A stretch of 64,000 nucleotides of DNA from Candidatus Latescibacterota bacterium (GCA_965204745.1 OZ242010.1:64001-128000); one strand, 5' to 3'. Shown: positions 24,932-41,575, counted from the first letter of the stretch. Numbers and translations: made by a program. Notes: generated by a model from the letters alone, not told the origin.

Positions 24932-25939
24932 ATGGCGATCACAACGGAAAGTGAATTGATGGATCAAATGACAACGCCATCTCCCGAAGTCATGGAGGCG
25001 GTGTCAAAATTGGATGGCCCCGTGATGATTTTGGGCGTCGCGGGAAAGATGGGGCCGAGTCTGGGAGAGTTGCTACTGCGCGCGGGTGCGGGCCGCGTGA
25101 TCGGCGTGTCCCGGTTTTCCAATCCCGCGGACCGAGACGCGATAGAAGCGCGGGGCATTGCGACCATCCAATGCGATTTGCTGGACGATGAAGCCTTGGC
25201 GCGCTTGCCGCAAGTGCCCTATCTCTATTTGCTGGCCGGGCACAAGTTTGGAGCAACGGGCAACGAGCCGTTGACCTGGGCGATGAATGCGGCCTTGCCC
25301 GCAAAAGTCATGCAACGGTTCCCCAATTCGCGCGTTATTTATGTATCTTCTGGCAATGTCTATGCCTTTGCGGCCGCGACGGGCACCGGGGCAACGGAGA
25401 AAGACGCGGTCAATCCGATAGGCGAATACGCCATGTCCCGCTTGGGCGGCGAGCGGCTCGCCGAATTTTATTGCAGAGAGAATGGAACGCCGCTGGCAAT
25501 TGTGCGTTTGTTTTACGCGACCGAGTTGCGCTATGGCATCATCTTGGACATCGCCCAAAAAATCGTAGCCGAGACGCCCATCGACCTGGCGATGGGATAT
25601 GTCAACCAAATTTGGCAAGGCGATGCCAATGCGTATTTGGCGCAGATGGTTCCGCTGTGTACCTCGCCCGCACGGGTGATCAACATGACCGGTAGCGAGG
25701 TGTTGTCCGTGCGCGAGTTGGCGTTGCAACTCGGCGAGCATCTCGGCATCGCCCCCATCTTTGAAGGCGAAGAGCGCGAAACGGCCCTGTTGGGCGACGC
25801 AAGCGCGCTGTTCAAAGAACTGGGCGCGCCGCGCATTCCCATCCAAAAAATCGTCACTTGGGTTGCACACTGGGTCATAAACGCCGGGCGCACACTGGGC
25901 AAACCGACAAAATACGAGTCGAGAACCGGGGCGTTTTAA
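24932..25939 (+). CDS. NAD-dependent epimerase/dehydratase family protein
   Basis: GVAGKMG, SSGNVY, YAMSR. Confidence 0.8.
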   Translation: MAITTESELMDQMTTPSPEVMEAVSKLDGPVMILGVAGKMGPSLGELLLRAGAGRVIGVSRFSNPADRDAIEARGIATIQCDLLDDEALARLPQVPYLYLLAGHKFGATGNEPLTWAMNAALPAKVMQRFPNSRVIYVSSGNVYAFAAATGTGATEKDAVNPIGEYAMSRLGGERLAEFYCRENGTPLAIVRLFYATELRYGIILDIAQKIVAETPIDLAMGYVNQIWQGDANAYLAQMVPLCTSPARVINMTGSEVLSVRELALQLGEHLGIAPIFEGEERETALLGDASALFKELGAPRIPIQKIVTWVAHWVINAGRTLGKPTKYESRTGAF

Positions 25940-26093
25940 GGGATGATCCTCACAGGACACGGACAGAGCACGACACGCAGATGGGAACTGGATTGGGCGG
26001 TGGCGGGGTTGCCTCACCTCTCACCTCTCCCGTCTCCCCTCTCACCGAAGGGGGTCGGGCGGGGTGGAAACCGACTACTGCTGGAGGAACGCC

Positions 26094-27389
26094 ATGAAAG
26101 CAGCAATCACCGAAGTGAACATCACCCCGCCCGTGGGGATTTCCATGTGTGGATTTGCCGCGCGCAAGGGGCCATCGGAGGCGATCAATGACGAATTGTT
26201 CGCCCGCGCACTGGTGCTGGACAACGGCGAAACGCAGGTCGCCATTGTCGGGGCCGATGTGATCAGTTTCGCGCCGGATCTGGTCAATCGGATTCGGGAT
26301 TTGGTCGAACAGGCTGTTGGGATTTCCGGAGATTGCGTTTTGCTCAATGGATCGCATTCCCATTCTGGCCCCACGGTGATGGCGTTTCGGAGCATGGGCG
26401 ACCGCGATGCCGCGTATGAAGATATCTTGTGCCGCAAGGTGGCCGGGGCCATTGCAATGGTCGCGAAGAACGCGGTGCCCGCATCGCTCTCGCACGGACG
26501 CGCGCCTGTGCGTATTGGGCACAACCGCCGCGAAATGCGAGCCGGACGCATTGTGCTAGGCCATCATCCCACGGGCCCGGAGGCGCCGTGGGTCGATGTG
26601 TTGCGCGTGGATGCCGCAAGCGGTGAACCGATGGCGGTCGTCTTTGCAACTGCGGCGCATCCCGTGAATTTGAACGCGCTATCGATCAGCGCGGAGTTTC
26701 CCGGGTACGCCGCTGAATTTGTGCGTCGCAATTTGGCGATGCCCTTGTTTTTGCAGGGGTGTTGCGGAGACATCAATTGTTCGCCCAAGGACGGGACTTT
26801 TGAAGGAAGCGCGTTGTTGGGCACGCGCTTGGGCGCGGCAACCCTGACCGCTGCGTTGGATGCCGAAGCCGTGGAGGGCGATGTGTTGACCGTGAACAAT
26901 CGGGTCGTGAAATTGCCCTTGATGTTGCCCGATATCGATGAAGCCGAGCACGCGCTCGCAGAGGCCGAGGCGAGTTTGCAACGCGCACGCGAGGATCAAA
27001 ATATCACGCCCTATCAGTTGCGCCAACAATACGAAGGCCGAGTCGGATGGGCAAAAGACTACGTGCAGGCCGCGCGAACAGGCGGCAACCCAACCGAGCC
27101 GTTTGCCATTCAAACCGTGCGGATTGGCAATTTGGCACTGGTGAGCTATCCTGGCGAGATGTTTGTCGATTATCAGTTGTCCATGGAAGACACTTCACCT
27201 TGCGATAAAACCATCGCACTCGCCTACACCAATGGGTGCATTGGCTACGTGCCAACCGCTGACGCGTACCCGGTTGGCGGGTACGAAATCGATCAAGCGT
27301 TTAAGTATTACGGCACCTTGATGATCGGGCCGGCGTGCGAAGACATCATCAAAACGACGACGATAGACATGCTCAACGAAATCGCATAA
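26094..27389 (+). CDS. Neutral/alkaline ceramidase-like hydrolase
   Basis: ITPPVG, SHSHSGP, AHP, QGCCGD, PGEMF, GYVPT, GGYE. Confidence 0.75.
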   Translation: MKAAITEVNITPPVGISMCGFAARKGPSEAINDELFARALVLDNGETQVAIVGADVISFAPDLVNRIRDLVEQAVGISGDCVLLNGSHSHSGPTVMAFRSMGDRDAAYEDILCRKVAGAIAMVAKNAVPASLSHGRAPVRIGHNRREMRAGRIVLGHHPTGPEAPWVDVLRVDAASGEPMAVVFATAAHPVNLNALSISAEFPGYAAEFVRRNLAMPLFLQGCCGDINCSPKDGTFEGSALLGTRLGAATLTAALDAEAVEGDVLTVNNRVVKLPLMLPDIDEAEHALAEAEASLQRAREDQNITPYQLRQQYEGRVGWAKDYVQAARTGGNPTEPFAIQTVRIGNLALVSYPGEMFVDYQLSMEDTSPCDKTIALAYTNGCIGYVPTADAYPVGGYEIDQAFKYYGTLMIGPACEDIIKTTTIDMLNEIA

Positions 27390-27719
27390 CCCGAAACCGT
27401 CCATCTATGATTATGTCCCCGTGCAACATACGACACATCGACCCCATCCCGCGCTGAACACGCGCAAAAAATGTTTGACAGGTAGCCGATATGTTTTTAC
27501 CTAAACAGCCCGTAAAGCCCCCATGCTTCAGCAGGAGGATATAGTGTGGCTCTGCCGCAGGCTTTAGCCCTACAAACTTTTTTTTAACAAAATGCTATCC
27601 GCAGTCGTCAAAGTAGTGTCCTCTAAAGCAAAAGCCCTTTTTTATCTGACCTACGCCCGTTTGCGGACAAGGCTTTTGCTTTGAGGACAACCGCAAGCGG
27701 GCTTTGTTTTGGTAAAAAA

Positions 27720-28862
27720 ATGGGCTATCAAACCTACAAATTCAAGTTGTACGACAACAAGCGACGCAATGCGTTTTTGCAGGAGCGTATCTCCGCTTTT
27801 GCGCCCGTGTATAACCACATGCTTGCTTTGCGTAGCCGGTACTATCGCAGATACGGTAAAGGGCTTTCTAAAAGCCAAATGCAAGCGCACCTGACCAAGT
27901 TAAAAAAGACACAACGATTTGCATGGTGAAATACGCTCCCCAGCCAAGCATTGCAAAATGTCGTTGAACGTATTTGCTTTGGCTACGACAAGTTTTTTGC
28001 AGGACAGAACAAGCGGTTGCCGAAGTTTCGTAGTTGGTTCAAGTACAAATCGTACACGCTCAAACAAACGGGCTACGAATTTCTTGACGGCAATCGTATT
28101 GAACTTGCGTTTGGCGTGCGTGGGCGTGTTAAGCGTGTGGTCAAGTATTTCAAGCATCGAGAATTTGATGCTAAAAGTGTCAAGACGGTCACGGTCATGC
28201 GTGACCGTGCAGGCGATATTTGGTTGTGCATCACGGCATTGTTTGATCGTGAGCCAAAAGTTGTATTTAAGACGGGCAAAACCGCAGGATTTGACTTTGG
28301 GCTCAAGCAATATCTCACTGTGTCCGACGGTACAACGCATGATTCGCCTTTGTTTTTTAAGCGCGGTATTCGCAAGGTCAAAAACGCCAACCGTGACTTG
28401 TCTCGCAAGCAAAAGCACAGCAATAATTGCGGGCGGGCCCGTCTCAACTTGGCGCGTGTCCATCGCAAAGTTGCAAACGCAAGAGAGAACCACCACTGGC
28501 AACTTGCAAATGAACTGTGCAAAAAGTATGACGTGCTTTGCTTTGAGATGTTGAACCTTCAAGGGATGAAAAAACTTTGGGGGCGAAAAGTCTCGGATTT
28601 GGGCTTTGCAGACTTTTTGCAAAAGTTGCAATGGGTTGCACAAAAGCACGGCAAAGTTGTTCAGTTCATCGACAAGTGGTATCCGTCAAGCAAGATGTGT
28701 AACGCTTGCGGGACGGTCAATAAGACCTTGCACCTGCGAGACCGTGTGTTCAACTGCAAATGCGGTTGGACATGTGACCGAGACTATAACGCCGCGCTTA
28801 ATATCCACAAGGTTGGGGAGACAACCTTTGCAGGAGAGACCGTAAGACGCTTGTCTGCATGA
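27720..28862 (+). pseudogene. tnpB: TnpB RNA-guided nuclease with an in-frame TGA at 27927-27929
   Basis: YKFKLY HTH start, GFDFGLK (RuvC I), FEMLNL (RuvC II), CNACG/CKCG Zn finger, DRDYNAALNI (RuvC III); the two ORFs share a frame across one stop. Confidence 0.88.
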
Positions 28863-28939
28863 AGGCGCAGTCTTGTCGATAGCACAACCTACGCTGAAGT
28901 GGGGCTGATGCCCTGATGCTTCAGCGCGGGGTTCTTCAC
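28863..28939 (+). ncRNA. Putative omega/reRNA scaffold at the IS right end (probably also overlaps the tnpB 3' end)
   Basis: Position between the tnpB stop and the right-end TCAC; established for TnpB, structure not computed. Confidence 0.5.
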
Positions 28940-29020
28940 CTACCAGAGAGTTAGAAGCTGTCTTAAAACGAAATCGGATCCCTCCCCTAGCCTTATTCCC
29001 CCTTCTACCCGGAGAACGCA

Positions 29021-30208
29021 ATGCGTAGAAAAATGATCCTCCCCGTCTTGACCGCGCTGATGCCCATTTTGGCATACGCGCAATCCAATGTCGATATCGA
29101 CTTCGACGACAATGGCGTCGTTGACTTCCGCGATTTTTTGGCCTTAGTGCAAGCCTTTGGCTCGGACCAAGAACCGTATGACCTGCACCCGGATGGCGTG
29201 GTTGATTTCAAAGATTTCCTCATTTTCGCAGAGGCTTATGGTCAGCGAGACACGTCTGCGGCCGGCCCGGTTACCGAGCGGGTCGATGAGCGAGAAGCCT
29301 CTGCTCAGGTCGAGTTCTTTGAACTGTCGACGAACAGCCGCCCAAACGATTTGGCGGTTGACCCGCGAGGATATGTATGGTTCACAGAAATGGGCACGAA
29401 TGCGATTGGTCGCTTAGAGTCGAGCACGGGAGAGATTGACCGATTTCCTCTGACCACGCCCGGAGCGCAACCGCACAGCATCGTTTTGGGCAACCGAGGG
29501 CGCGTGTGGTTCACGGAAGTTGTCGCCAATCGCATCGGTCGCCTGGATTCCTTCTCTGACGAGATCCAGACCTTCACGATCCCAACCCCGGGCAGCCGGC
29601 CCACGAGTTTGCGTTTTGACGATCAAGACATGCTCTGGTTTATCGCGAGTGCCGCGGATCACATTGGCCGGTTGAATCCCACCACCGGGGCGATTGACGA
29701 ATTTCCGATCAGTGATCGAGATGTCGAGCTTTCGCAACTTCAGATCGGTCAAAATGGGCAACTCTGGTTCGCGGATCAGGTGCGAGATCAGTTGGGGATG
29801 CTCAACCCCACCAACGGACAAGTGATGACCTTCGAGCTTCCAAACGGCGGTCTCGACCTTGGGCAAATGGCATTGGCTTCAGATGGTCGGGTGTGGTTTG
29901 TAGATACGCATTTGCGAAGGCTGGGCATGTTTGATCCCGCCAATAGCCAGACGCGCTTTTTTCAGTTGCCCACAAAAATGAGATCCCCTTCTGCTTTGCA
30001 CGTCGATATGAATGACCGCGTCTGGATCGGTGGGCGGTTGTCGAAATGGTTGGTCAATTTTGATTGGCAAGATCAAAAGTTCACGGTTTACGAACTTCCC
30101 GATTCGAGAATTGCAGTCGAAAATTTGCGCGTTGACCGCACGGGGGTTGTCTGGCTCGTCGATTCAGTCGGAAATCGGATTGTACGCATTGAAACGCCGC
30201 ATTTTTGA
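29021..30208 (+). CDS. Secreted protein with an EF-hand/dockerin-like N-domain and a Vgb-lyase-like beta-propeller
   Basis: Signal peptide, DFDDNGVVDFRDF and DLHPDGVVDFKDF, repeated ~42-aa G.VWFTE...IGRL blades. Confidence 0.85.
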   Translation: MRRKMILPVLTALMPILAYAQSNVDIDFDDNGVVDFRDFLALVQAFGSDQEPYDLHPDGVVDFKDFLIFAEAYGQRDTSAAGPVTERVDEREASAQVEFFELSTNSRPNDLAVDPRGYVWFTEMGTNAIGRLESSTGEIDRFPLTTPGAQPHSIVLGNRGRVWFTEVVANRIGRLDSFSDEIQTFTIPTPGSRPTSLRFDDQDMLWFIASAADHIGRLNPTTGAIDEFPISDRDVELSQLQIGQNGQLWFADQVRDQLGMLNPTNGQVMTFELPNGGLDLGQMALASDGRVWFVDTHLRRLGMFDPANSQTRFFQLPTKMRSPSALHVDMNDRVWIGGRLSKWLVNFDWQDQKFTVYELPDSRIAVENLRVDRTGVVWLVDSVGNRIVRIETPHF

Positions 30209-30239
30209 CATTTACCCTTTATCGCTAAACGGAGGGTTT

Positions 30240-30485
30240 ATGGCTACTCTGACGTTTGATACCCATGCCTTTGTCAAGGAACTGACGCAGGCCGGGATGC
30301 CTGAAGAACAAGCCGAAGTGCTGGCGCGGTCTCAAGCCGCATTGATTGATGAAAAGCTGGCGACCAAGCGGGATTTGAAAGAACTGGAATTGCGGTTGAA
30401 GCACGACCTGACATTGCGGCTCGGCTCGATGATGGTCGTCGCTATCGGCGTGGTTGTTGCTTTGGTGAAACTTCTGTCAGGGTGA
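30240..30485 (+). CDS. DUF1640/CCDC90-like coiled-coil membrane-anchored protein, copy 1 (81 aa)
   Basis: FDTHAFVKEL..AGMPEEQAE head, LATK.D neck, stalk, TM LGSMMVVAIGVVVALV; GGAGG RBS. Confidence 0.85.
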   Translation: MATLTFDTHAFVKELTQAGMPEEQAEVLARSQAALIDEKLATKRDLKELELRLKHDLTLRLGSMMVVAIGVVVALVKLLSG

Positions 30486-30551
30486 TTCTATCTAAACTGC
30501 TGAGTTCGGTCGTACTGTGCTGATGTTCATTTTTTTCAACTGGAGGATTTT

Positions 30552-30830
30552 ATGGCTACTCTGACGTTTGATACCCATGCTTTTGTCAAAGAACTGACGC
30601 GGGCCGGGATGCCGGAAGAACAAGCCGAAGTGCTGGCGCGGTCTCAAGCGACGTTGATTGATGAAAAGCTGGCAACCAAACAGGACTTGAAGGAACTGGA
30701 ATTGCGGTTGAAACGCGATATACAGGAGATGGAATTGCGGCTGAAGCACGATATGACCGTACGTCTCGGCTCGATGATGGTGGTTGCTATCGGCGTGGTT
30801 GCCGCTTTGGTGAAACTTCTGTCAGGGTGA
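30552..30830 (+). CDS. DUF1640-like protein, copy 2 (92 aa)
   Basis: Same head and anchor, plus one 11-aa module. Confidence 0.85.
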   Translation: MATLTFDTHAFVKELTRAGMPEEQAEVLARSQATLIDEKLATKQDLKELELRLKRDIQEMELRLKHDMTVRLGSMMVVAIGVVAALVKLLSG

Positions 30831-30894
30831 TTCTATCTAAACTGCTGGGTTTGGTCGTATTGTGCTGATGTTCATTTCTCACCTGGAGGATTTT

Positions 30895-31227
30895 ATGGCT
30901 ACTCTGACGTTTGATACCCATGCTTTTGTCAAGGAACTGACGCAGGCCGGGATGCCGGAAGAACAGGCCGAGGTGCTGGCGCGGTCTCAAGCGACGTTGA
31001 TTGACGAAAAACTGGCGACGAAACAGGACTTGAAGGAACTGGAATTGCGGTTGAAACGCGATATACAGGAATTGAAGCGCGATATGAAAGAACTGGAGAC
31101 GCGATTGACCCGCGACATGCAGGAGATGGAATTGCGGCTGAAGCACGACTTGACCGTGCGACTCGGCTCGATGATGGTGGTTGCTATCGGCGTGGTTGCT
31201 GCTTTGGTGAAACTTCTGTCAGGGTGA
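30895..31227 (+). CDS. DUF1640-like protein, copy 3 (110 aa)
   Basis: Extra modules 7+11+11. Confidence 0.85.
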   Translation: MATLTFDTHAFVKELTQAGMPEEQAEVLARSQATLIDEKLATKQDLKELELRLKRDIQELKRDMKELETRLTRDMQEMELRLKHDLTVRLGSMMVVAIGVVAALVKLLSG

Positions 31228-31293
31228 TCCTATCTAAACTGCTGGGTTTGGTCGTATTGTGCTGATGTTCACTTTTCTCGACTGGAGGATTTT

Positions 31294-31692
31294 ATGGCTA
31301 CTCTGACGTTTGATACCCACGCCTTTGTCAAGGAACTGACGCAGGCCGGGATGCCGGAAGAACAAGCCGAAGTGCTGGCGCGATCTCAAGCGACGTTGAT
31401 TGACGAAAAGCTGGCGACGAAACAGGACTTGAAGGAACTGGAATTGCGGTTGAAACGCGATATACAGGAATTGAAACGTGATATGAAAGAACTGGAGACG
31501 CGATTGGTACGCGACATGCAGGAAATGGAAGCCAATCTCAAACGCGATATGAAAGAATTGGAAATGCGTTTGACCCGCGACATGCAAGAGATGGAATTGC
31601 GGTTGAAGCACGACTTGACCGTGCGTCTCGGCTCGATGATGGTGGTTGCTATCGGCGTGGTTGCCGCTTTGGTGAAACTTCTGTCAGGGTGA
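31294..31692 (+). CDS. DUF1640-like protein, copy 4 (132 aa)
   Basis: Extra modules 7+11+11+11+11. Confidence 0.85.
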   Translation: MATLTFDTHAFVKELTQAGMPEEQAEVLARSQATLIDEKLATKQDLKELELRLKRDIQELKRDMKELETRLVRDMQEMEANLKRDMKELEMRLTRDMQEMELRLKHDLTVRLGSMMVVAIGVVAALVKLLSG

Positions 31693-31756
31693 TCCTATCT
31701 AAACTGCTGAGTTTGGTCGTATTGTGCTGATGTTCATTTTTCGACTGGAGGATTTT

Positions 31757-32089
31757 ATGGCTACTCTGACGTTTGATACCCATGCCTTTGTCAAGGAACT
31801 GACGCAGGCCGGGATGCCGGAAGAACAAGCCGAGGTGCTGGCGCGATCTCAAGCGATGTTGATTGACGAAAAACTGGCGACGAAACAGGACTTGAAGGAA
31901 CTGGAATTGCGTCTGAAACGCGATATACAGGAATTGAAGCGCGATATGAAAGAATTGGAAATGCGATTGACACGCGACATGCAAGAAATGGAATTGCGGT
32001 TGAAGCACGACTTGACCGTGCGACTCGGCTCGATGATGGTCGTCGCGGTTGGCGTGATCGCTGCTTTGGTGAAACTTCTGTCAGGGTGA
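31757..32089 (+). CDS. DUF1640-like protein, copy 5 (110 aa)
   Basis: Extra modules 7+11+11. Confidence 0.85.
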   Translation: MATLTFDTHAFVKELTQAGMPEEQAEVLARSQAMLIDEKLATKQDLKELELRLKRDIQELKRDMKELEMRLTRDMQEMELRLKHDLTVRLGSMMVVAVGVIAALVKLLSG

Positions 32090-32155
32090 TCCTATCTAAA
32101 CTGCTGGGTTTGGTCGTATTGTGCTGATGTTCATTTTTCTCGACTGGAGGATTTT

Positions 32156-32488
32156 ATGGCTACCCTGACGTTTGATACCCACGCCTTTGTCAAGGAACTG
32201 ACGCAGGCCGGGATGCCGGAAGAACAAGCCGAAGTGCTGGCGCGATCTCAAGCGACATTGATTGACGAAAAACTGGCGACGAAACAGGACTTGAAGGAAC
32301 TGGAATTGCGTCTGAAACGCGATATGAAAGAACTGGAGATGCGTCTGAAGCGCGATATACAAGAATTGAAACGCGATATGCAAGAGATGGAATTGCGGTT
32401 GAAGCACGACTTGACCGTGCGACTCGGCTCGATGATGGTGGTTGCTATCGGCGTGATCGCTGCTTTGGTGAAACTTCTGTCAGGGTGA
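32156..32488 (+). CDS. DUF1640-like protein, copy 6 (110 aa)
   Basis: Extra modules 11+7+11. Confidence 0.85.
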   Translation: MATLTFDTHAFVKELTQAGMPEEQAEVLARSQATLIDEKLATKQDLKELELRLKRDMKELEMRLKRDIQELKRDMQEMELRLKHDLTVRLGSMMVVAIGVIAALVKLLSG

Positions 32489-32554
32489 TCCTATCTAAAC
32501 TGCTGGGTTTGGTCGTATTGTGCTGATGTTCACTTTTCTCGATTGGAGGATTTT

Positions 32555-32986
32555 ATGGCTACTCTGACGTTTGATACCCATGCCTTTGTCAAAGAACTGA
32601 CGCAGGCCGGGATGCCGGAAGAACAAGCCGAAGTGCTGGCGCGGTCTCAAGCGACGTTGATTGACGAAAAGCTGGCAACCAAACAGGACTTGAAGGAACT
32701 GGAATTGCGGCTGAAACGCGATATACAGGAATTGAAGCGCGATATGAAAGAACTGGAGACGCGATTGGTACGCGACATGCAGGAAATGGAAGCCAATCTC
32801 AAACGCGATATGAAAGAACAGGAAGCCAATCTCAAACGCGATATGAAAGAACTGGAGACGCGATTGGTACGCGACATGCAAGAGATGGAATTGCGATTGA
32901 AGCACGACTTGACCGTGCGACTCGGCTCGATGATGGTGGTTGCTATCGGCGTGGTTGCCGCTTTGGTGAAACTTCTGTCAGGGTGA
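32555..32986 (+). CDS. DUF1640-like protein, copy 7 (143 aa)
   Basis: Extra modules 7+5x11. Confidence 0.85.
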   Translation: MATLTFDTHAFVKELTQAGMPEEQAEVLARSQATLIDEKLATKQDLKELELRLKRDIQELKRDMKELETRLVRDMQEMEANLKRDMKEQEANLKRDMKELETRLVRDMQEMELRLKHDLTVRLGSMMVVAIGVVAALVKLLSG

Positions 32987-33052
32987 TCCTATCTAAACTG
33001 CTGGGTTTGGTCGTATTGTGCTGATGTTCACTTTTCTCGATTGGAGGATTTT

Positions 33053-33418
33053 ATGGCTACTCTGACGTTTGATACCCATGCCTTTGTCAAAGAACTGACG
33101 CAGGCCGGGATGCCGGAAGAACAAGCCGAAGTGCTGGCGCGGTCTCAAGCAACGTTGATTGACGAAAAGCTGGCAACCAAACAGGACTTGAAGGAACTGG
33201 AATTGCGTCTGAAACGCGATATGAAAGAACTGGAGATGCGTCTGAAGCGCGATATACAGGAATTGAAACGCGACATGCAGGAAATGGAAGCCAATCTCAA
33301 ACGCGACATGCAAGAGATGGAATTGCGGTTGAAGCACGATATGACCGTGCGTCTCGGCTCGATGATGGTGGTTGCTATCGGCGTGGTTGCCGCTTTGGTG
33401 AAACTTCTGTCAGGGTGA
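33053..33418 (+). CDS. DUF1640-like protein, copy 8 (121 aa)
   Basis: Extra modules 11+7+11+11. Confidence 0.85.
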   Translation: MATLTFDTHAFVKELTQAGMPEEQAEVLARSQATLIDEKLATKQDLKELELRLKRDMKELEMRLKRDIQELKRDMQEMEANLKRDMQEMELRLKHDMTVRLGSMMVVAIGVVAALVKLLSG

Positions 33419-33448
33419 TCAATGCCATACCCGCATTGAGTTTTGAAC

Positions 33449-33478
33449 AAAGCATCCCAATATCGGGATGCTTTTTTT
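33449..33478 (+). terminator. Intrinsic terminator closing the array
   Basis: AAAGCATCCC-AATATC-GGGATGCTTT followed by a T run. Confidence 0.8.
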
Positions 33479-33491
33479 GTTTGAAAAAGCG

Positions 33492-33520
33492 TTGACACGC
33501 CGGAAAGGCAATGCTACTAT
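33492..33520 (+). promoter_or_regulatory. Sigma70 promoter of the ABC operon
   Basis: TTGACA-N17-TACTAT with an extended -10 TG. Confidence 0.65.
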
Positions 33521-33566
33521 ACGCTTGATACGGGGCGCGGTGTATGCAACTGTTCGGAGCAGTTCT

Positions 33567-34970
33567 ATGAAATTTTGCAACATCATTTTTTGTTTTCTGC
33601 TTATCGGATCGCTGAGTTTTCCCTGTGATGCGGATCAGTTGGTGCTGATGTCGCCGCATTCCGATGAGATCCAAAACGAGTTTGAATCGGCGTTTGCCGC
33701 CTTTTATCAAAAAGCCACCGGGCGCGATGTGCAAGTCGAATGGCTCGATATCGGCGGGGGCACGAGCTCGATTTTGCGCTATATCAAATCGGAGTTCGGG
33801 CGGTCAGCCGAGGGCATTGGCATCGACATTTTCTTCGGCGGAGGCATCGATCCTTTTGTCGATTTGGCCGAGCGCGGATTGTGTCACCCCTATCGGTTGC
33901 CCGCTGCCGCGCTCCAGCGGTTGCCCGCCCAAATCGGCGGGGTTCCGCTCTACGATTCGGCCTATAAATGGTATGGCGCGACCCTGTCTGGATTTGGCAT
34001 TGTGTACAACCGGCGCGTGCTCGAAATTTTGAATTTGCCCGTCCCGCAAACATGGGCAGACTTGGGCGCGCCGGAATTGTTTTCGTGGGTCGGTTCGGGC
34101 GATCCCCGCAAAAGCGGTAGCGTTCACATGGCTTATGAGTTGATTTTGCAAGCGTATGGCTGGGAAAAGGGCTGGGAGGTGATGACCGCGCTGGGGGCGA
34201 ATGTGCGAAATTTTGGACAGGGCGGCTCTTACGCGCCCAAGGAAGTGGCGGTGGGCGAAGTCGCTTACGGCCTGTCCATTGATTTTTACGCATGGGCGCA
34301 AGTCGAAGAAGTGGGCGATGAATACATCGGCTTTGTGATGCCGGACAATTTGACCATTGTCAATCCCGATGGCATTGCCATCTTAAAGGGCGCGCCCAAT
34401 TTGGAAGTGGCGCAAGCGTTTTTGGAATTTGTCATGTCCGATGCCGGGCAAAAGCTCTGGTTTTTGAAAAAGGGCTCCCCGGGCGGTCCCGTCCATAAAC
34501 AACTCAATCGCTTTACCGTATTGCCCGATCTGTACACGCGCTATCGGGACGAGGCCGCCGTAACGCTCAATCCCTTTGAATGGCATTCCGACTTGATATA
34601 CGACGCGGAACGGGGCAGCGGAAGGTGGCGCGTATTAAACGATCTGATCGGCGTGATGATCATCGACTCGCACCGGGCATTGCAAGCCGCGTGGAAAGAA
34701 GCGATGAAAGATGGCGTATCGGCAGAAGAACGCAGGGCACTGGCCGCGGTCCCGGTATCAGAAGGCGAAGCCCTAATATTGGCGCAGACATGGGGCGACG
34801 CCGAAGTACGCAATCGCACGATAGCCGCGTGGACGGACTTTGCCCGCGACAAATACGGCACGCATGACGCCCCCTTGCTCGCCCGCCTCATCAACGCGAT
34901 AACCCTGATTTTTCCCCTGGGAATCGCCGCGTGTGTGATGGCCTATTTGTGGCGTTTGCAAGTGCGATGA
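33567..34970 (+). CDS. ABC transporter substrate-binding protein (Fe3+/thiamine-like) with a C-terminal TM helix
   Basis: Signal peptide, DIFFGGG, GIVYN, DPRKSGS, PDGIAILKGA; first gene of the ABC operon. Confidence 0.85.
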   Translation: MKFCNIIFCFLLIGSLSFPCDADQLVLMSPHSDEIQNEFESAFAAFYQKATGRDVQVEWLDIGGGTSSILRYIKSEFGRSAEGIGIDIFFGGGIDPFVDLAERGLCHPYRLPAAALQRLPAQIGGVPLYDSAYKWYGATLSGFGIVYNRRVLEILNLPVPQTWADLGAPELFSWVGSGDPRKSGSVHMAYELILQAYGWEKGWEVMTALGANVRNFGQGGSYAPKEVAVGEVAYGLSIDFYAWAQVEEVGDEYIGFVMPDNLTIVNPDGIAILKGAPNLEVAQAFLEFVMSDAGQKLWFLKKGSPGGPVHKQLNRFTVLPDLYTRYRDEAAVTLNPFEWHSDLIYDAERGSGRWRVLNDLIGVMIIDSHRALQAAWKEAMKDGVSAEERRALAAVPVSEGEALILAQTWGDAEVRNRTIAAWTDFARDKYGTHDAPLLARLINAITLIFPLGIAACVMAYLWRLQVR

Positions 34971-34994
34971 AAACGACTTTTCAAAGAGCAAACC

Positions 34995-36080
34995 ATGTTT
35001 GGGATCGAACTAAAAAATGTGACGCGGCGGTTTGACGATGTTCTGGCATTGGATCGCGTCGACCTAAAGATCGACGCGGGGGAGTTCTTTGTTTTGTTGG
35101 GCCCCTCTGGGTGCGGCAAGACCACCCTGTTACGCATTTTGGCCGGGTTTGATCAGCCCGAAACCGGCCGGGTGGTTTTCGGCGACCGCGATGTGACCGC
35201 AGTGCCCCCGCACGAGCGCGACACGGGTATGGTATTTCAAAACTACGCGCTGTGGCCGCACATGACGGTTTGGAAAAATGTGGAATACGGCCTCACCATG
35301 CGGAACATGGCGCGACACGAGCGCGACCAAAAAGTGAAACGCGCCCTGGAAATGGTGCAGATGAGCAGCTATGCGGAGCGGTCGCCCAATCAGCTTTCGG
35401 GCGGGCAACAACAGCGCGTGGCACTCGCACGGGCGCTGGTCATCGAACCGGGGGTCGTGCTCTTGGACGAGCCTTTGTCCAACTTGGATGCGCGCTTGCG
35501 ATTGGAGATGCGCGAGCAGTTGCAGGACTTGCAACGCGCTTTGGGCGTGACGATGATCTACGTGACACACGATCAAAAAGAAGCCCTGGCAATGGGGGAT
35601 CGCATTGCGGTGATGCAAATGGCCGAGGTGGCGCAAGTCGGCACGCCGCGGTCAATTTACATGCGACCGGCCACGCGCTTTGTCGCGGATTTCATCGGCG
35701 AGATCAATTTGATTTCCGGCGAGATAACAGCCGTGGATCCCGAGGTGGTCGCAACAGATGTGGGAGACATTCGCGGGCGGGCGGGATACGAGAACGCGCA
35801 GGTGGGGGATCGCGTCCTGTGTGCGGTTCGTCCCGAAGCAGTGGATTTTCTGTCGGGTGAACCCGATGCGACGGACAATGTCATCTCCGGGCGCGTGCGG
35901 CGGGCCATTTATTTGGGCGAGGTCGAGCAATTTTTTGTCGAATTGGCAACGGGCGATCAGATCAAACTGATGAAATACGGCGCGACCACCCGGCGCGGGC
36001 AACCCGGCGATGCGGTGCGATTGCGGTTTTCGCAACAGCGGGTCATCGCGTTGCGCGATGCCGAGGAGGATCGCCGATGA
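34995..36080 (+). CDS. ABC transporter ATP-binding protein (FbpC/PotA-like, TOBE domain)
   Basis: GPSGCGKT, LSGGQQQR, LLDEPLSNLD, YVTHDQ. Confidence 0.95.
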   Translation: MFGIELKNVTRRFDDVLALDRVDLKIDAGEFFVLLGPSGCGKTTLLRILAGFDQPETGRVVFGDRDVTAVPPHERDTGMVFQNYALWPHMTVWKNVEYGLTMRNMARHERDQKVKRALEMVQMSSYAERSPNQLSGGQQQRVALARALVIEPGVVLLDEPLSNLDARLRLEMREQLQDLQRALGVTMIYVTHDQKEALAMGDRIAVMQMAEVAQVGTPRSIYMRPATRFVADFIGEINLISGEITAVDPEVVATDVGDIRGRAGYENAQVGDRVLCAVRPEAVDFLSGEPDATDNVISGRVRRAIYLGEVEQFFVELATGDQIKLMKYGATTRRGQPGDAVRLRFSQQRVIALRDAEEDRR

Positions 36081-37762
36081 AGCGGTTCGATCTCACTTGG
36101 CCCACCCTCATTTTTCTGCTGGGCCTGATCGCGTTTTTTGCCCTGTTCTTGTTTTATCCCCTGTGGTATGCCATTGTGCAATCGCTGGTGGTCGATGGCA
36201 GGCTCACGGTTGCGTTTTACGAATTGATGGTCACGAGTCCGGTTTATCAGGAGGCCATTCTCAATAGTTTTCGCTTGGGCATGATCACGACCATTGCGAC
36301 CACCTTGCTCAGCTTGCCCCTGGCGTTTTTGCTGGTGCGATACGACTTTGTCGGCAAGGGATTTGTCAGTGGCCTCATCTTGGTGCCGATGGTCTTGCCC
36401 CCATTTGTCGGGGCCATCGGCATGAAGCAGATGTTTGCGCGGTTTGGGTCGATCAATTTGCTGCTTTTGGATTTGGGCCTCATCGATCAACCCATAGATT
36501 GGTTCGGCGGTGGCGGGTTTGTGGGCGTGGTGATTTTGGAAGTCCTGCATCTCTATCCCATTATGTATCTCAATGTGGCCGCTGCATTGGCCAATGTCGA
36601 TCCGAGTTTGGAAGACGCGGCGCGCAACATGGGTAGTAGCGGGTTTCGCCTGTTTCGCACTGTGACCTTTCCGCTGATGTTGCCGGGCTATTTTGCCGGG
36701 GCCATCATCGTTTTTATTTGGGCGTTCACCGACTTGGGCACGCCGCTCATTTTCAATTACCGGCAAGTGGTGGCGGTCGAGATTTTCAATTCCATCGAAG
36801 ATATCAACGAAAATCCCATGGCGTACGCGCTCGTGGTCTTCGTGTTGTTGCTGACGGTCTTTTTCTTCTATCTGTCCAAAGCCACTTTGGGCAATCGCCG
36901 CTACGAGATGATCGCGCGCGGGTATAGTAGTTCCGGGTCGAGGCGTGCGTCTCGGGGGATGACCGCGTTGATCTACGCCGCGATGCTGTCCCTGACCGGC
37001 CTTGCGATGATCCCGCATGCGAGCGTGTTTTTGACGTCTGTTGCCGAGCGGTGGTTTATGACCGTGCTGCCCCAAGAAACGACTGGGCGATTTTACGCCA
37101 TGGTATTTGAACACCCGATGTCCCTGTCGAGCATCGAGATGAGCCTGATGTTGAGCGTGTTGAGCACGGCGTTGGATATCGGGCTGGGCATTGGCATCGC
37201 CTATTTGCTCACGCGCACCCGCATCCCGTACAAAGGGGTTTTGGATGCGATGGCGATGTTGCCCTTGGCCCTGCCCGGGCTGGTGCTGGCGTTCGGGTAT
37301 CTGGCCGGGTATTCGGGCACGTTTTTGGATGCGCGGCATTATCCCGTCCCACTGCTGGTCATCGCCTACGCGGTGCGGCGGTTGCCCTATATGGTGCGCG
37401 CGGCGTACGCGGGATTTCAGCAGACGAGCATCACGCTGGAAGAAGCCGCGCGAAATTTGGGCGCGTCCCGGCTCCGCACCCTGTTTCAAATTACGTTCCC
37501 GCTGATTTTAGCCAATCTGGTGGCCGGCGGCATTTTGTGTTTTGCCTTTGCCATGCTCGAAGTGAGCGACAGTTTGATTTTGGCCCTCAAAGACGAGTAC
37601 TACCCGATTACCAAAGCGATTTACGCGCTGATGGGCCGCATTGCAGATGGCGCGTTTTTAGCCAGCGCGATGGGCGTTTTCGGCATGGTGTTGTTGATCG
37701 TGGGCTTGTTCTTGGCCGGGCGATTCCTGGGCCGGCGCATGGGCGAATTGTTCCGCGCGTGA
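36077..37762 (+). CDS. ABC transporter permease (FbpB-like, duplicated)
   Basis: Two EAA loops (LEDAARNMG, LEEAARNLGA); ATGA overlap with the ATPase. Confidence 0.92.
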   Translation: MKRFDLTWPTLIFLLGLIAFFALFLFYPLWYAIVQSLVVDGRLTVAFYELMVTSPVYQEAILNSFRLGMITTIATTLLSLPLAFLLVRYDFVGKGFVSGLILVPMVLPPFVGAIGMKQMFARFGSINLLLLDLGLIDQPIDWFGGGGFVGVVILEVLHLYPIMYLNVAAALANVDPSLEDAARNMGSSGFRLFRTVTFPLMLPGYFAGAIIVFIWAFTDLGTPLIFNYRQVVAVEIFNSIEDINENPMAYALVVFVLLLTVFFFYLSKATLGNRRYEMIARGYSSSGSRRASRGMTALIYAAMLSLTGLAMIPHASVFLTSVAERWFMTVLPQETTGRFYAMVFEHPMSLSSIEMSLMLSVLSTALDIGLGIGIAYLLTRTRIPYKGVLDAMAMLPLALPGLVLAFGYLAGYSGTFLDARHYPVPLLVIAYAVRRLPYMVRAAYAGFQQTSITLEEAARNLGASRLRTLFQITFPLILANLVAGGILCFAFAMLEVSDSLILALKDEYYPITKAIYALMGRIADGAFLASAMGVFGMVLLIVGLFLAGRFLGRRMGELFRA

Positions 37763-37797
37763 AAAGGGCGGATGAACGCGGATGAAAGGCGAGAGAC

Positions 37798-37921
37798 AAG
37801 TGGTTAGTGGTCAGTGGTCAGTGGTCAGTGGTCAGTAGTCAGTGGTCAGTAGTCAGTGGTCAGTAGTCAGTGGTCAGTAGTCAGTGGTCAGTAGTCAGTA
37901 GTCAGTGGTCAGTAGTCAGTC
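37798..37921 (-). repeat. Long ACTGAC(C/T) heptamer array (about 17 units)
   Basis: AGTGGTC/AGTAGTC units on the plus strand. Confidence 0.95.
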
Positions 37922-38050
37922 CCCGCCGCACCCCAAAAGGCAACAGACGCAAGATGGAAGGCATCCGCCTGTCGTCACGCTAGCACGAGCACAGGCGTAG
38001 CCAACTCCGGAGTCCAGTGACTTTTTTGTTCCATTTTTGAGACAAAAAAC

Positions 38051-38081
38051 AAAAAGCCGCCACGTAATGTGACGGCTTTTT
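38051..38081. terminator. Bidirectional terminator-like hairpin
   Basis: AAAAAGCCG-CCAC...GTGA-CGGCTTTTT between convergent genes. Confidence 0.7.
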
Positions 38082-38098
38082 CATTGTCTGCTCCATCT

Positions 38099-38374
38099 CT
38101 ATTTGGAATGTGACTTCTCCCAGATGGGTTTCATTTTTTCGATGACCTCAGCATCGGTCGGGCTGGACGCGACAATGGCTGTAAATTCTTCGGCTTCAAT
38201 TCCGAGTTCCTCCAGGAATTTTCTGTCGGCCGGGCACGGATAGACATAGTCGCCGATGCAACCCCGCAACTTGGCGCGGGCCTTATCCGTGATGCGCGGA
38301 AGCCAGGGCATGTCGCCCATGTAAAGCTGGCGGCTGCGCGGTCTAAAATCGACAGCAGAACTGAGTTTGTCCAT
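38099..38374 (-). CDS. Small DUF5069-like protein
   Basis: PRS...WLPRITDKARA...GDY.YPCPAD..FL pattern; GAGGAGG RBS. Confidence 0.6.
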   Translation of the reverse strand: MDKLSSAVDFRPRSRQLYMGDMPWLPRITDKARAKLRGCIGDYVYPCPADRKFLEELGIEAEEFTAIVASSPTDAEVIEKMKPIWEKSHSK

Positions 38375-38405
38375 TGCTCATTCCTCCTCTCTCGTGGTGT
38401 GGGAT

Positions 38406-39023
38406 TCAACGGGTACCAGAACTTAGCGATTTTGCCGGCGAATGGCAAGTTAGAAAGCTGTACGTGCTCAACATGGTATCGCCGTATTTTTTTTGACGGG
38501 AAAGGGTGAGGTTTGGGAAGGATTCGGGAAGGGGTGTTCGAGCGGCGTGTTGGATGAGGATGCGCGCATTGGGCGCGAGGATGGGGGTTGTTGCGACTCG
38601 GCCGAGCACGGCGCGAGCCATGGGCTGACCGTCTAATTGTGCATGGTACGGAGGATCGAGGTAGAGGATGTCAAAGCGGGACTGCGACCGGGCGAGTTGG
38701 GGCAAAAGGGCTTGGGCAGAACGCGCGAAAAGCGCGACGCGGTCGCCTAAGTGCCACTGGTCGATAAGTTGCGCGATGAAGCGGTTGCAACGGCGATTCG
38801 GTTCATTGATGACCACCCGCGCGCCGCGGCTACAGGCTTCGAGGCCGATTTGCCCGGAGCAAGCAAAGAGGTCGAGGAAATAGTTGCCAGACAGGGTTTC
38901 GCCAAGCGAAGAGAACGCGGCTTTTTTGACAACCTCAGAAGTGACGCGGGCATTGCCGTACTTCTCATTGCGAAAGGCCATGCGGCGGCCCTTAAGTTCG
39001 CCGGCGATGATACGCATAACCAT
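38406..39023 (-). CDS. rsmD: RsmD-family rRNA methyltransferase
   Basis: MRIIAGELKGR, LDLFACSG, YLDPPY, KKYGDT. Confidence 0.85.
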   Translation of the reverse strand: MVMRIIAGELKGRRMAFRNEKYGNARVTSEVVKKAAFSSLGETLSGNYFLDLFACSGQIGLEACSRGARVVINEPNRRCNRFIAQLIDQWHLGDRVALFARSAQALLPQLARSQSRFDILYLDPPYHAQLDGQPMARAVLGRVATTPILAPNARILIQHAARTPLPESFPNLTLSRQKKYGDTMLSTYSFLTCHSPAKSLSSGTR

Positions 39024-39106
39024 CCCTCAAGTACAAAGAACAGGGCCTGCGATGCGACAGGCCCTAAACGCCTTAGAGTGCAACACCACCCCAAGCCCCT
39101 GCCTTT

Positions 39107-41575
39107 TCAATTTCCATAACGGAAACGCACCTCGCGCTCCACGCTCTTGCCGCTGACCAGATCGGTCACGATAATCTCGAGTGCGTTGACCCCGGACTTG
39201 ACCTTGTTGAGCACGATTTCCACGTATTCGCGCTCGTCCGCGTCGCGCCCAGAGAGTTCGTTGGTAATCGCCACTTGGGGTTTGCTCGTTCTGAAAATGG
39301 CGCGCAACCCGGTCGCCACTGCGCCGAACACGCCAACCGAGGGCATGGCACTCGAGCGAATGCGGTATTCGGTTTTGTACCGGGTTTGTCCAAATGCGTC
39401 TTTGGTCAGGTTGTAGATTTCAAAGTACGCATAGACATTTTGCGTTTCGGCATAGCTGCGCGTGGGAATGGGGATGATCCACACGTCTTCTTTTTGAAAT
39501 TTCGCCGCGCCTTCATCTGAGATATTGGAGGCCAGTTGGATTTCGCTGACTTGGAGTTCGGGGATTTGATAGTCTCGGACTTCGAGTTCTTGCCGATAGA
39601 GGCCAGTGCGCCCGGAAATGAGGTCTTTCATCTGCACTTGCAATTCGTATTTGCCGGGGGGCACTTGTGTTTTGACGATTTCCGGGACAAATGCGCCCTG
39701 TTCTGCCGCGACTTGCGCGCCGCGATACAAGAACGCATCGGACGTGCGATAGATGGAGGTGTGGCCTTCATTTGCCAGCGCGACCGCCAGTTGGACGTGG
39801 ATAAAACTCGAATCCGCTTCTTGCTCTATTTCGACCTGTTCGGGCGGAATGCCGTAGTAAATCTCGAGATTGGTTTGCCCATCTGCGCCGCGGAAGTGCG
39901 CCAAGTCGTAGTAAAAATTGAGCACGTCGCCGGGCAGGCCGGGGCGATAAAAGTCAGGGGAAGTCGATACGGCTTGTTGATAGATGACCTCGGGCGTGTG
40001 TTCGGTCATGCGGGCGATGTAGGAAATGGCTTCGGCGTCTTCGACCGTGGCTTCGGGCAACGGAGCAAAATCGTAGCGGCCATTGCCCCATTCGTCGGTA
40101 AATGTGATCTCGATGCCGCCGTTGAGTTGAATATAAGTCCAGGTTTCCCACGGCACCGTGTCGATTTCATTGCCAATGGTGATCGGGGAGTACCGGCCGA
40201 ATTGCAAGCGGGTGTTGAGTTGGCCCGTTTGCTCGTCCAAGACGCCCGCGACGCTGCCATCGCGGTCAAATGGATTGCGCTCGAATCCGAGTCTGAAGCT
40301 CTCATCTATACCGCCTTCGGCCTCGGACGGAAGTTCGGCCACAACTTCACCGGCCCCGGCTTCTTCGGCCACTGTAACGTCATTTTCCATATCATCCGGA
40401 CTGCCAGCTTCGAAGAGCGATCCCATTTCGCGGTTGGCGCGAACGGGAAAGACCGGGCCCGTGAACGTAAAAAAAGCCGCTTCCGGGCCGTAGATGTCCA
40501 CGGCCATCCGCGTTCGCACGCGCTCGACTTCGGCGGTTTGGACGAAGTTGCGATCATTGGAGCGCGAGCGGTAATCGGGCTCGCCATAGCGAATATAAAC
40601 CGTGCCGCGCTGATCCCACGGATAGACATTGGACGAGAAATAGGTGCGCGCATACCATGTGCGCCGATAGTGTTCGATAACGCGCTCGTTGATTTTGGTC
40701 AGAATATCGGGGTCGCGCCGCGCCCAGAATTGCTCGCGGTACGCCTGTTGCTCTGCGCCCGGCGCAGTGGCGCGGTACGCTTCGAGTTCTGCGCCCGAGG
40801 CGACGTACGCGATATTGGTGTAGTGCGCACGTTCACTGCCTTCGCTGTTGGCGAGATAACGCTCGAAGTATTCCAAGGCTTTTTGCGCGTCGTCATTGTA
40901 AAAATGACCCTGTGCGACAATGGGCAAGAGTTGAACCACAGCGGAATGCGTGGAGAGATAGGGCGCGATGTGTTCGAGAATTTTGTCAAAATTTTTCGCT
41001 TGCACGCAGGCCAAGCCAAAGTAGTACAATCCCTCGGGATTGTCGGGTTCGAGTTTCACGTATTTTTCGTAGTACTGCATGGCCTTGTCGTGGTCTTCTT
41101 GAAACCGCTCATAGACCTCGCCGAGCAGGCGATAGGCCGGGCCGTAGTCGGGATCGATTTTGGTGGCGCGCTTGGCTTCGGCAATGGCCCTGCGAAAATT
41201 GTAATAGGATTGCAACCCGCGCGTGGGCGATTCGGCATACGTCAGGCCCAGCCCCACGTAGGCTTCAACGAGTTTTTTGTCGAATTTTTTCGCGGCCCGA
41301 AACGCCTCTTCCGCCGCCTTAAATTCCTTCCGGTTGAGATAGAGATACCCCAGTTGCGAATGCACATGGGCGTCTTCGGGAAAAACTTCCAAAACGCGCT
41401 GAAGACTCGTCATGGCCTCGTTGATCTCCCCGGCATCGATCTGGCGTTGGCTTAGGGCAAACATCGTATTGCGAAAAATTTTGTCTTGTTCAGACGGTTC
41501 ACTTTCTTCGGCAAAAGCCGGCAACGCGACGCAACAAGCCAAGGCGACCCTCCAGAACCGCAATGCAATTTTCAT
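39107..41575 (-). CDS. TPR + GWxTD-domain exported protein
   Basis: Signal peptide, TPRs, FWARRDP...NER..EHYRR...WDQRGTVYIRYGEPD. Confidence 0.8.
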   Translation of the reverse strand: MKIALRFWRVALACCVALPAFAEESEPSEQDKIFRNTMFALSQRQIDAGEINEAMTSLQRVLEVFPEDAHVHSQLGYLYLNRKEFKAAEEAFRAAKKFDKKLVEAYVGLGLTYAESPTRGLQSYYNFRRAIAEAKRATKIDPDYGPAYRLLGEVYERFQEDHDKAMQYYEKYVKLEPDNPEGLYYFGLACVQAKNFDKILEHIAPYLSTHSAVVQLLPIVAQGHFYNDDAQKALEYFERYLANSEGSERAHYTNIAYVASGAELEAYRATAPGAEQQAYREQFWARRDPDILTKINERVIEHYRRTWYARTYFSSNVYPWDQRGTVYIRYGEPDYRSRSNDRNFVQTAEVERVRTRMAVDIYGPEAAFFTFTGPVFPVRANREMGSLFEAGSPDDMENDVTVAEEAGAGEVVAELPSEAEGGIDESFRLGFERNPFDRDGSVAGVLDEQTGQLNTRLQFGRYSPITIGNEIDTVPWETWTYIQLNGGIEITFTDEWGNGRYDFAPLPEATVEDAEAISYIARMTEHTPEVIYQQAVSTSPDFYRPGLPGDVLNFYYDLAHFRGADGQTNLEIYYGIPPEQVEIEQEADSSFIHVQLAVALANEGHTSIYRTSDAFLYRGAQVAAEQGAFVPEIVKTQVPPGKYELQVQMKDLISGRTGLYRQELEVRDYQIPELQVSEIQLASNISDEGAAKFQKEDVWIIPIPTRSYAETQNVYAYFEIYNLTKDAFGQTRYKTEYRIRSSAMPSVGVFGAVATGLRAIFRTSKPQVAITNELSGRDADEREYVEIVLNKVKSGVNALEIIVTDLVSGKSVEREVRFRYGN

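Follow-up and report, generated by a model that had tools for sequence, protein, structure and literature searches.

Why would a bacterium keep eight copies of one small gene side by side, nearly identical at both ends and different in the middle? The question is raised by a stretch of 64,000 nucleotides (nt) from a Candidatus Latescibacterota bacterium (GCA_965204745.1, OZ242010.1:64001-128000), which we will call the window. On its + strand, at positions 30240-33418, lie eight tandem genes whose products are members of the DUF1640/CCDC90-like family (PF07798 in Pfam); this identity is firm. The reading that we favor, with a probability of about 0.6, is that they form a functional array of eight paralogs, which would present the same head on stalks of variable length and serve as scaffolds at the inner membrane, with every part of the proteins kept by purifying selection. 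The locus is a real, well-preserved, and unusually large array within a known family; it is not a new kind of system.

Calling of open reading frames (ORFs) and translation gave eight intact genes that encode 81, 92, 110, 132, 110, 110, 143, and 121 amino acids (aa), and all eight proteins are distinct. A preliminary description of the locus had listed eight intact head-to-tail paralogs of these lengths, none identical to another and none frameshifted, and both the ORFs and the alignment agree with it. When the eight copies are aligned, the head and neck vary in three columns and the tail in five, and the length differences are confined to the stalk that lies between them. If the stalk is segmented at each [Q/R]D start, it falls exclusively into units of 11 residues (hendecads) and 7 residues (heptads). 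Copy 1 (30240-30485; 81 aa) has a single hendecad and is the minimal, ancestral-like form. Copy 2 (30552-30830; 92 aa) has the stalk 11-11. Copies 3 and 5 (30895-31227 and 31757-32089; 110 aa each) have 11-7-11-11, while copy 6, of the same length (32156-32488; 110 aa), has 11-11-7-11. The longer stalks are those of copy 4 (31294-31692; 132 aa; 11-7-11-11-11-11), copy 7 (32555-32986; 143 aa; 11-7-11x5), and copy 8 (33053-33418; 121 aa; 11-11-7-11-11). The module strings in the preliminary description are exact once the constant first hendecad is added to each. In the shared columns, copies 1 and 2 match the remaining copies at 93-95% identity. Tandem Repeats Finder recovers both levels of repetition, with gene-scale periods of 343-498 nt and module periods of 33 and 21 nt.

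Every gene has GGAGG 7-8 nt 5' of its ATG. The seven spacers (30486-30551, 30831-30894, 31228-31293, 31693-31756, 32090-32155, 32489-32554, and 32987-33052, all on the + strand) are 64-66 nt long and nearly identical, and GGAGGATTTT closes each of them before the ATG. Copy 1 begins 31 nt past the stop codon of the upstream gene, which encodes a propeller protein, and a terminator-like hairpin of 10 pairs lies directly 3' of copy 8 on the + strand (33449-33474, or to 33484 with its T run). A scan for sigma-70-like promoters and strong terminators found none inside the array, with the caveat that the sigma-70 model may not be this phylum's promoter type. Given the lack of internal signals in that scan, the short distance to the upstream gene, and the hairpin after copy 8, the eight genes appear to be transcribed in an operon-like manner. 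A listing of 20 public runs contained no RNA data set with the locus, which bears on expression in neither direction. On the opposite strand, ORFs of 85-136 aa overlap each gene. These are by-products of the repeat: it is the + frame that Pfam matches, that has ribosome-binding sites, and that places most of the variable nucleotide columns of the head (43 codons) at third positions.

PF07798 (CCDC90-like, formerly DUF1640) is the best Pfam match for all eight proteins. Its gathering score is 33.5 bits, and six of the eight pass, at 33.8-53.2 bits (39.5, 53.2, 37.2, 33.8, 40.7, and 43.6 bits for copies 3 to 8). A search of NCBIfam with copies 1 and 4 found no family. The head leads to human CCDC90B: phmmer aligns the head of copy 4 to the structure 6H9M (E = 9.7e-4), and a profile built from 45 relatives aligns to 6H9M over head and neck (E = 9.8e-6). 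Fourteen of 25 aligned head residues are identical to the human protein, with the motif LTFDTHA.V..L...G....QAE. The CCDC90-like identity proposed in the preliminary description is thus supported by both the Pfam model and the alignment to 6H9M. The neck reads LATKQD in seven copies and LATKRD in copy 1; in all eight it fits the beta-layer neck motif that Hartmann et al. 2016 (PMC4786415) describe for DUF1640 proteins, [aliphatic]-A-T-K-[polar]-[DE], placed where the stalk begins. The profile also matches a prokaryotic entry in the PDB, 6H9L (“uncharacterized protein”; E = 0.006). That protein consists of repeated ATKEDIEALRK-like units of 11 residues that align with the neck and stalk modules here, which suggests that some family members may keep the neck motif in every hendecad.

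AlphaFold2 models copy 3 on its own as a short helix that leads through a turn into one long helix, with a predicted local distance difference test (pLDDT) score of 93. The three-copy model of the same protein scores 0.76, versus 0.01 for the best of three controls, with at least 94% contact agreement between runs and a partner pLDDT of at least 85. (When such models were calibrated, 20 of 30 solved homo-pairs and 1 of 23 single chains attained the mark.) The tightest contacts in the modeled trimer are at residues 40-43, in the neck; the chains are in register, and the core contacts of the stalk are spaced 3-4-4. From these models, the proteins would most likely form parallel homotrimers, in line with the trimeric coiled coil that the preliminary description had proposed. 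Each chain would have four parts: an N-terminal head of ~40 residues, a beta-layer neck, a parallel coiled-coil stalk, and a C-terminal transmembrane helix. The head-neck-stalk-anchor layout and the modular 7/11 stalk that had been described earlier are supported.

The N-terminus lacks a signal-peptide-like segment, and the sole hydrophobic stretch is formed by the last ~20 residues, with K, H, or R before it. In all eight copies, the alignment shows a C-terminus that reads LGSMMVVAIGVV(A/V)ALVKLL and then SG, with a single predicted transmembrane anchor. The yeast homologs Put6 and Put7 face the matrix (PMC7519068). Given the absence of a hydrophobic N-terminus, the single C-terminal hydrophobic stretch after K/H/R, and the orientation of the yeast proteins, we infer that the homotrimers would be tail-anchored, with the head toward the cytoplasm. 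The literature describes MCUR1-CCDC90B and Put6-Put7 as hetero-oligomeric complexes of eukaryotic paralogs and proposes a membrane scaffold role for them. By analogy, the proteins in the array probably hold a partner through the head, as scaffolds at the inner membrane.

Purifying selection acts on all three regions. In the head (43 codons), the 28 pairs of copies within the array differ on average by 6.29 synonymous and 0.78 non-synonymous changes, which gives a synonymous divergence (dS) of 0.23 and a ratio of non-synonymous to synonymous divergence (dN/dS) of 0.034. The 25-codon tail has dN/dS = 0.13. For the stalk, dN/dS was computed only between copies of equal architecture, and 11 such pairs range from 0.02 to 0.18; one further pair, in which the heptad is shifted, gave 0.28, which is a misalignment. 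For instance, the stalks of copies 3 and 5 differ by 8 synonymous changes and 1 non-synonymous change. Copy 4 shares its module order with copy 15 of the array in a congener (G016), and across 62 stalk codons these two differ by 14 synonymous and 2 non-synonymous changes (the proportion of differing synonymous sites, pS, is 0.40). Strong purifying selection is thus seen in each of the three regions. The earlier suggestion of a diversifying repertoire is not supported at the level of the sequences themselves: the ratios of 0.02-0.18 over head, tail, and stalk give no sign of positive selection. Since the heads average ~6 synonymous differences per pair, the copies are not recent duplicates. They also exchange sequence: 69 of 153 informative site pairs fail the four-gamete test, leaving mosaic patterns, and this is gene conversion among the copies.

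How would such a series arise? We propose that the array and its stalk variants come from unequal homologous recombination, whose partners would be either whole gene units or single modules of 33 nt (hendecad) and 21 nt (heptad); heads and tails swap sequence via gene conversion. The stalk probably grew by duplication of the neck-proximal hendecad, since the modules resemble it (TKQDLKELELRL vs. LKRDMKELEMRL). At the coiled-coil rise of 0.15 nm per residue, one head would be presented on stalks of 11 to 73 residues, or ~1.6-11 nm, which supports the earlier idea that one head is placed at different distances from the membrane. By reasoning only, stalk length and heptad position would favor homotrimers, because unequal stalks cannot keep identical heads and identical anchors both in register and because a shifted heptad dephases the core.

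To place the array among its relatives, we searched 40 genomes, numbered with the genome under study as G000, using copy 4 as the query. There were matches in 11 genomes, including nine of the 20 from the same genus; the other 11 congeners had no match. The array occupies a defined slot. Its left border is the propeller gene (29021-30208, + strand; Vgb_lyase family; PF24684 at 1.8e-55), and its right border is a gene for the solute-binding protein of an ATP-binding cassette (ABC) transporter (33468-34970, + strand; SBP_bac_6/8/11/1 in Pfam), which has a promoter-like site of its own at 33492-33520. The slot holds no copies in G002, G005, G008, and G010, where the border genes are 90-170 nt apart; one copy in G001 (90 aa); eight here; and 16 in G016. 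The 16 genes in G016 are intact, encode 90-181 aa, have stalks of up to 113 residues, and all differ in architecture. In a tree of heads and tails, copy 1 falls among the single-copy genes from congeners and apart from copies 2-8, which group with the G016 array (support 86); all sequences from the genus cluster together (support 91). (The tree is built on 79 columns, and 67 of its 102 inner branches are unresolved.) The array has expanded in place at one slot.

G016 carries a second array, of two genes, elsewhere in its genome. Its large array has two insertions in spacers (L023 9332-10276 and 12396-13239) whose ORFs resemble transposases on visual inspection: a pair of 193 + 117 aa, which starts with a zinc-ribbon-like segment, and another of 142 + 128 aa. 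In G008 and G010, a single 79-aa gene is found away from the slot, in a 4.7-kb island that is absent here (L028 2530-7243 in G008 and likewise L027 in G010; the empty site in our genome is G000 1381983-1382131). The best DNA match of these single genes is copy 1, at 81% over 227 nt. They are flanked by paralogous exported proteins of 672 and 639 aa that have ~90 C-terminal residues in common. G018 has three copies, at another site.

The propeller gene was considered as a functional partner and rejected: four congeners keep the propeller-ABC pair without a DUF1640 gene, and the copy in G008 and G010 sits elsewhere. It is the left neighbor in G016, in G001, and in the four congeners with an empty slot, and we use it as a border marker. 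Its product has a signal-peptide-like start and two D-x-D-x-(N/D)-G-V-V-D-F-(R/K)-D-F stretches that resemble dockerin or EF-hand motifs by eye; there was no Pfam dockerin match. Further upstream, a TnpB-like ORF (27951-28862, + strand; Cas12f1-like TNB domain at 1.1e-19 and OrfB_IS605 at 7e-16) lies in a ~1.6-kb stretch (27390-29020) between a ceramidase-like gene and the propeller gene. These two genes are ~160 nt apart in G016, which suggests that the stretch is an insertion of the IS200/IS605 type, peculiar to this genome.

The subfamily reaches well beyond the genus. A protein database search returned 2,278 proteins at E ≤ 0.001. Among the best 120 of these, 50 have this genome's signature C-terminus, and 45 of the 50 differ from our eight copies, including proteins of 99, 103, 109, and 114 aa. 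Several of the proteins with the signature ends repeat the 143-, 132-, and 110-aa architectures found here, with 138/143, 129/132, and 109/110 identical residues. Entries that share the length of their longest contig suggest arrays of at least 6, 6, 3, 2, and 2 genes in other assemblies, with co-residence deduced from those equal lengths. A search of genome contigs gave 77 loci with relatives, at 44-95% identity, in Binatota, Acidobacteriota, Gammaproteobacteria, Nitrospirota, Tectimicrobiota, and Latescibacterota. Outside the genus there are 69 loci; counting genes of at least 70 aa, 57 of these loci have just one and the remaining 12 have two to four. Because the lengths of the relatives fall on 68 + 11n or 68 + 7 + 11n (75, 79, 86, 90, 97, 101, 108, 112, and so on), the quantized stalk is a property of the whole subfamily, and the arrays of 8 and 16 genes are its extreme.

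The tree groups the proteins mostly by phylum, with 16 changes of label versus 66.8 in shuffled trees. Within Binatota, and likewise within Acidobacteriota, the neighboring genes are conserved. Between phyla (loci L032-L106), the full-length identity of the small protein is 50-80%, and identity in the head reaches 92%. We make no claim of recent transfer between phyla, as a tree of 79 columns is too short to separate strong conservation from transfer. In our genome, the PF07798 family is strongly expanded: there are 27 matches, eight of them in the array. The others are tail-anchored coiled-coil genes with different heads and stalks of 11-residue repeats, up to ~350 aa. They include G000:C1 4076294-4077759, 3903603-3904399, 885445-886269, 2069473-2070234, 4251785-4252984, 5033872-5034924, 5129938-5130681, and 1117253-1118239, among others. 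Three tandem pairs are found among these genes, and the members of one pair differ by a single 7-residue unit.

We weighed four other explanations. One is that the assembly inflated one or two genes to eight. The genome was assembled as a single 5.48-Mb contig. In four public runs, from four studies, that contain this organism or close strains, the contigs for the flanks (at least 99% identity) end at the edges of the array (30265/30266 and 33391-33393) and no contig spans the whole array; such breaks would fit an artefact and are also what is expected of a repeat. In one X10 contig, 30719 runs directly into 33275, with 2555 nt skipped (side 49); this could reflect a shorter array in another strain or a join induced by the repeat. 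Against inflation, ten short contigs from the four runs match copy-specific stalk stretches without a mismatch, each of them assigned to one copy by a stretch that is unique in the window, and the stalk of copy 6 is almost wholly covered at 100% by unique contigs from two runs. Independent assemblies of congeners hold 3 and 16 copies. Five of the eight proteins are exact database entries (several come from this same genome and so are not independent), and near-identical proteins are found on other contigs. Because the copies differ at so many sites (head dS of ~0.2), an artefact is very unlikely, the least probable of the explanations we considered. Another proposal, from the preliminary description, is that the proteins form a diversifying repertoire at the cell surface and serve in host interaction or self-recognition. 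The runs are labeled as sponge metagenome, and the head-neck-stalk-anchor layout recalls trimeric autotransporter adhesins. But with no signal-peptide-like N-terminus and a hydrophobic segment at the C-terminus alone, the head is expected to lie inside the cell, and a near-invariant head that shares 14 of 25 residues with human CCDC90B is the opposite of a diversifying antigen. Pfam found no reverse transcriptase, invertase or recombinase, or silent cassettes in the 10 flanking ORFs (24932-41629; ORFs of at least 150 aa only), and, as bears on silent cassettes, each of the eight copies has its own start and ribosome-binding site. We consider this proposal highly improbable.

The proteins might instead derive from phages or mobile elements and act at the membrane in phage exclusion or defense. 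The head matches PHROG 17872, of unknown function (E = 1e-16), homologs occur in 14 plasmid records, and the literature mentions DUF1640 genes in prophage regions, in a T5-like phage, and on small plasmids; also, the single gene of G008 and G010 lies in an island that is absent here. Yet the neighbors conserved within Binatota and within Acidobacteriota indicate vertical inheritance, and the tree mostly follows phylum. There are no phage genes in the 10 flanking ORFs, where the TnpB-like ORF upstream is the sole mobile-element gene. As for defense, which the preliminary description had raised, we found nothing beyond weak matches in PADLOC-DB 2.0: two of the three copies tested (4 and 7) hit coiled-coil parts of LeoC, LmuB, LeoBC, LeoA, or ZorA (E = 1e-4 to 9e-3), and neither copy 1 nor the upstream gene had a match. 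A dN/dS far below 1 is not the signature of an arms race, and we think that a phage origin or role is unlikely. The remaining alternative accepts that the genes are real and selected, holds that they were amplified in number (perhaps for dosage), and views the diversity of stalk lengths as neutral drift without a function. Any string of hendecads and heptads is still a coiled coil, so slippage and unequal crossing-over could randomize the lengths. Insertions or deletions of 33- or 21-nt repeats are automatically in frame and in register, and for this reason the in-register length changes, which the preliminary description had correctly observed, are not in themselves evidence of selection. The arrays also appear dispensable, as most loci outside the genus have a single gene, four congeners have an empty slot, and over half of the congeners have no match to copy 4. 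The transposase-like elements inside the G016 array and the lengths of 99, 103, 109, and 114 aa in related assemblies fit drift as well. On the other hand, architectures persist in related assemblies and across a species split (copy 4 and copy 15 of G016, at pS = 0.40). Architectures differ in 16 of 16 copies in G016 and in 7 of 8 here, which also argues against drift, though fast slippage could give the same result. Neutral drift in stalk length is a strong competitor, although we lean weakly against it.

Several observations weigh against a functional array of scaffolds kept by purifying selection. Copies 1 and 2, which have the shortest stalks, are under the Pfam cut-off, at 27.5 and 29.3 bits. 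Foldseek with the monomer model puts 6H9M first, yet at E = 0.42, and gave no significant match. The passing score of the trimer model may echo the solved CCDC90B trimer (“memory”), and three copies are the only stoichiometry modeled. The dN/dS values come from non-independent pairs and from stretches of few codons (43, 25, and 11-62), with a history that gene conversion has blurred. The repeat structure by itself produces length changes that stay in frame and in register, and these are no proof that length is selected. When nearby ORFs from 74 loci were clustered, the 15 largest clusters included no neighbor that spans phyla, other than DUF1640 genes and the ORFs that overlap them; because no neighbor is conserved across phyla, genomic context gives no clue to a partner.

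There is also some decay. The preliminary description had proposed that frameshifted or out-of-register copies in relatives, together with a lack of expression, would point to neutral amplification. Within the genus, all 34 of the subfamily genes in six genomes are intact. Nevertheless, decay does occur in the subfamily, as seen in G018, in short head matches elsewhere, and in a fragment in our own genome. Two of the three G018 copies have a 14-residue, proline-containing insert that is not coiled coil, and one of them also lacks two head residues. (These are copies 1 and 2, at L025 4869-5868, where the insert S-[V/A]-DRPTTFAESTFR interrupts the stalk; copy 1 is the one without the two head residues. 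We rejected a frameshift as the source of the odd unit of 25 residues in G018, since each of the two alternative frames is either closed or unrelated.) The 130 head matches in other genomes include nine of less than 70 aa, which are fragments or contig ends. Finally, a headless fragment of 31 codons (G000:C1:2369758-2369853), probably a relic, consists of the last stalk unit and the anchor; its ...VKLL ending is shared with the single-copy genes of congeners.

Even if the array is functional and its genes are maintained, as we favor, the lengths of the stalks need not be selected. The only hint that they are is that single architectures are conserved between species and between assemblies, and this argues weakly that particular architectures are maintained and not merely tolerated. 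A more ambitious version is a selected length series, with quantized heights below the membrane, a register code set by where the heptad falls among the hendecads, which would keep the paralogs homotrimeric despite identical heads and anchors, and a layered or graded scaffold of molecular rulers. With steps of 7 or 11 residues (~1.0 or 1.6 nm each), the series would span ~1.6 to 11 nm here and reach ~17 nm in the congener with 16 genes. We put this forward tentatively and think it rather unlikely. If it is true, these arrays would be a ready-made experiment on stalk length in the MCUR1 family.

The proteins share with the described DUF1640/CCDC90-like proteins (CCDC90B, MCUR1, Put6/Put7, and 6H9L) the head motif, the beta-layer neck, the coiled-coil stalk, and the C-terminal anchor, and our model adds a putative trimer. 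Eukaryotic paralogs that act together are also known (MCUR1-CCDC90B and Put6-Put7). In contrast, the proteins here are far smaller (81-143 aa), and they come in 8-16 tandem copies with one head and whole-module changes in the stalk, whereas the eukaryotic paralogs differ throughout. The preliminary description did not recognize the locus as a described system, and this holds in the literature we searched: we found no published array of DUF1640 genes or series of stalk lengths, in a search that did not include Adlakha et al. (Structure 2019), which covers prokaryotic members and may mention stalk lengths.

The closest described parallel is the Bdr proteins of Borrelia, which have a short N-terminal part, 11-residue KID repeats (PF02524), and a C-terminal hydrophobic segment. 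According to the literature, these are inner-membrane-associated paralogs of unknown function, and the repeat number of bdrT differs between strains (~9 vs. 6), so the analogy in repeat number drawn in the preliminary description stands. The Bdr protein of B31 cp32-1 is built of 18-residue (11+7) units followed by a C-terminal hydrophobic segment. Unlike the single chromosomal array here, bdr copies are scattered over cp32 and linear plasmids. The B31 cp32-1 protein matches PF02524 at 8.6e-21, while none of our eight proteins does at E up to 1; conversely, it has no match to PF07798 at E up to 0.1. Comparing our 45-sequence profile to one Bdr with hhalign gave a probability of 3% over 15 columns. 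We consider Bdr an analog, as homology is not supported by these tests with one Bdr. Trimeric autotransporter adhesins also have modular trimeric coiled-coil stalks, beta-layers, and variable repeat numbers, and the same laboratory's nomenclature serves both them and DUF1640 (PMC4786415). However, these adhesins are exported, surface-exposed, and anchored by a beta-barrel in the outer membrane, whereas our proteins lack an export signal and have one alpha-helical anchor, at the C-terminus.

From bacteria to human mitochondria, the DUF1640/MCUR1 family is conserved, yet its molecular role is debated. Here, the head and the anchor are constant and the stalk alone is varied, in 8 steps in one genome and in 16 in another, which makes the question of the distance between head and membrane directly testable. 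The array supplies natural constructs for pull-downs, for mapping of topology, and for tests of oligomer specificity. The locus is also a clean example of a small gene that has grown into a large array at one slot (0, 1, 8, or 16 copies), with gene conversion among the copies.

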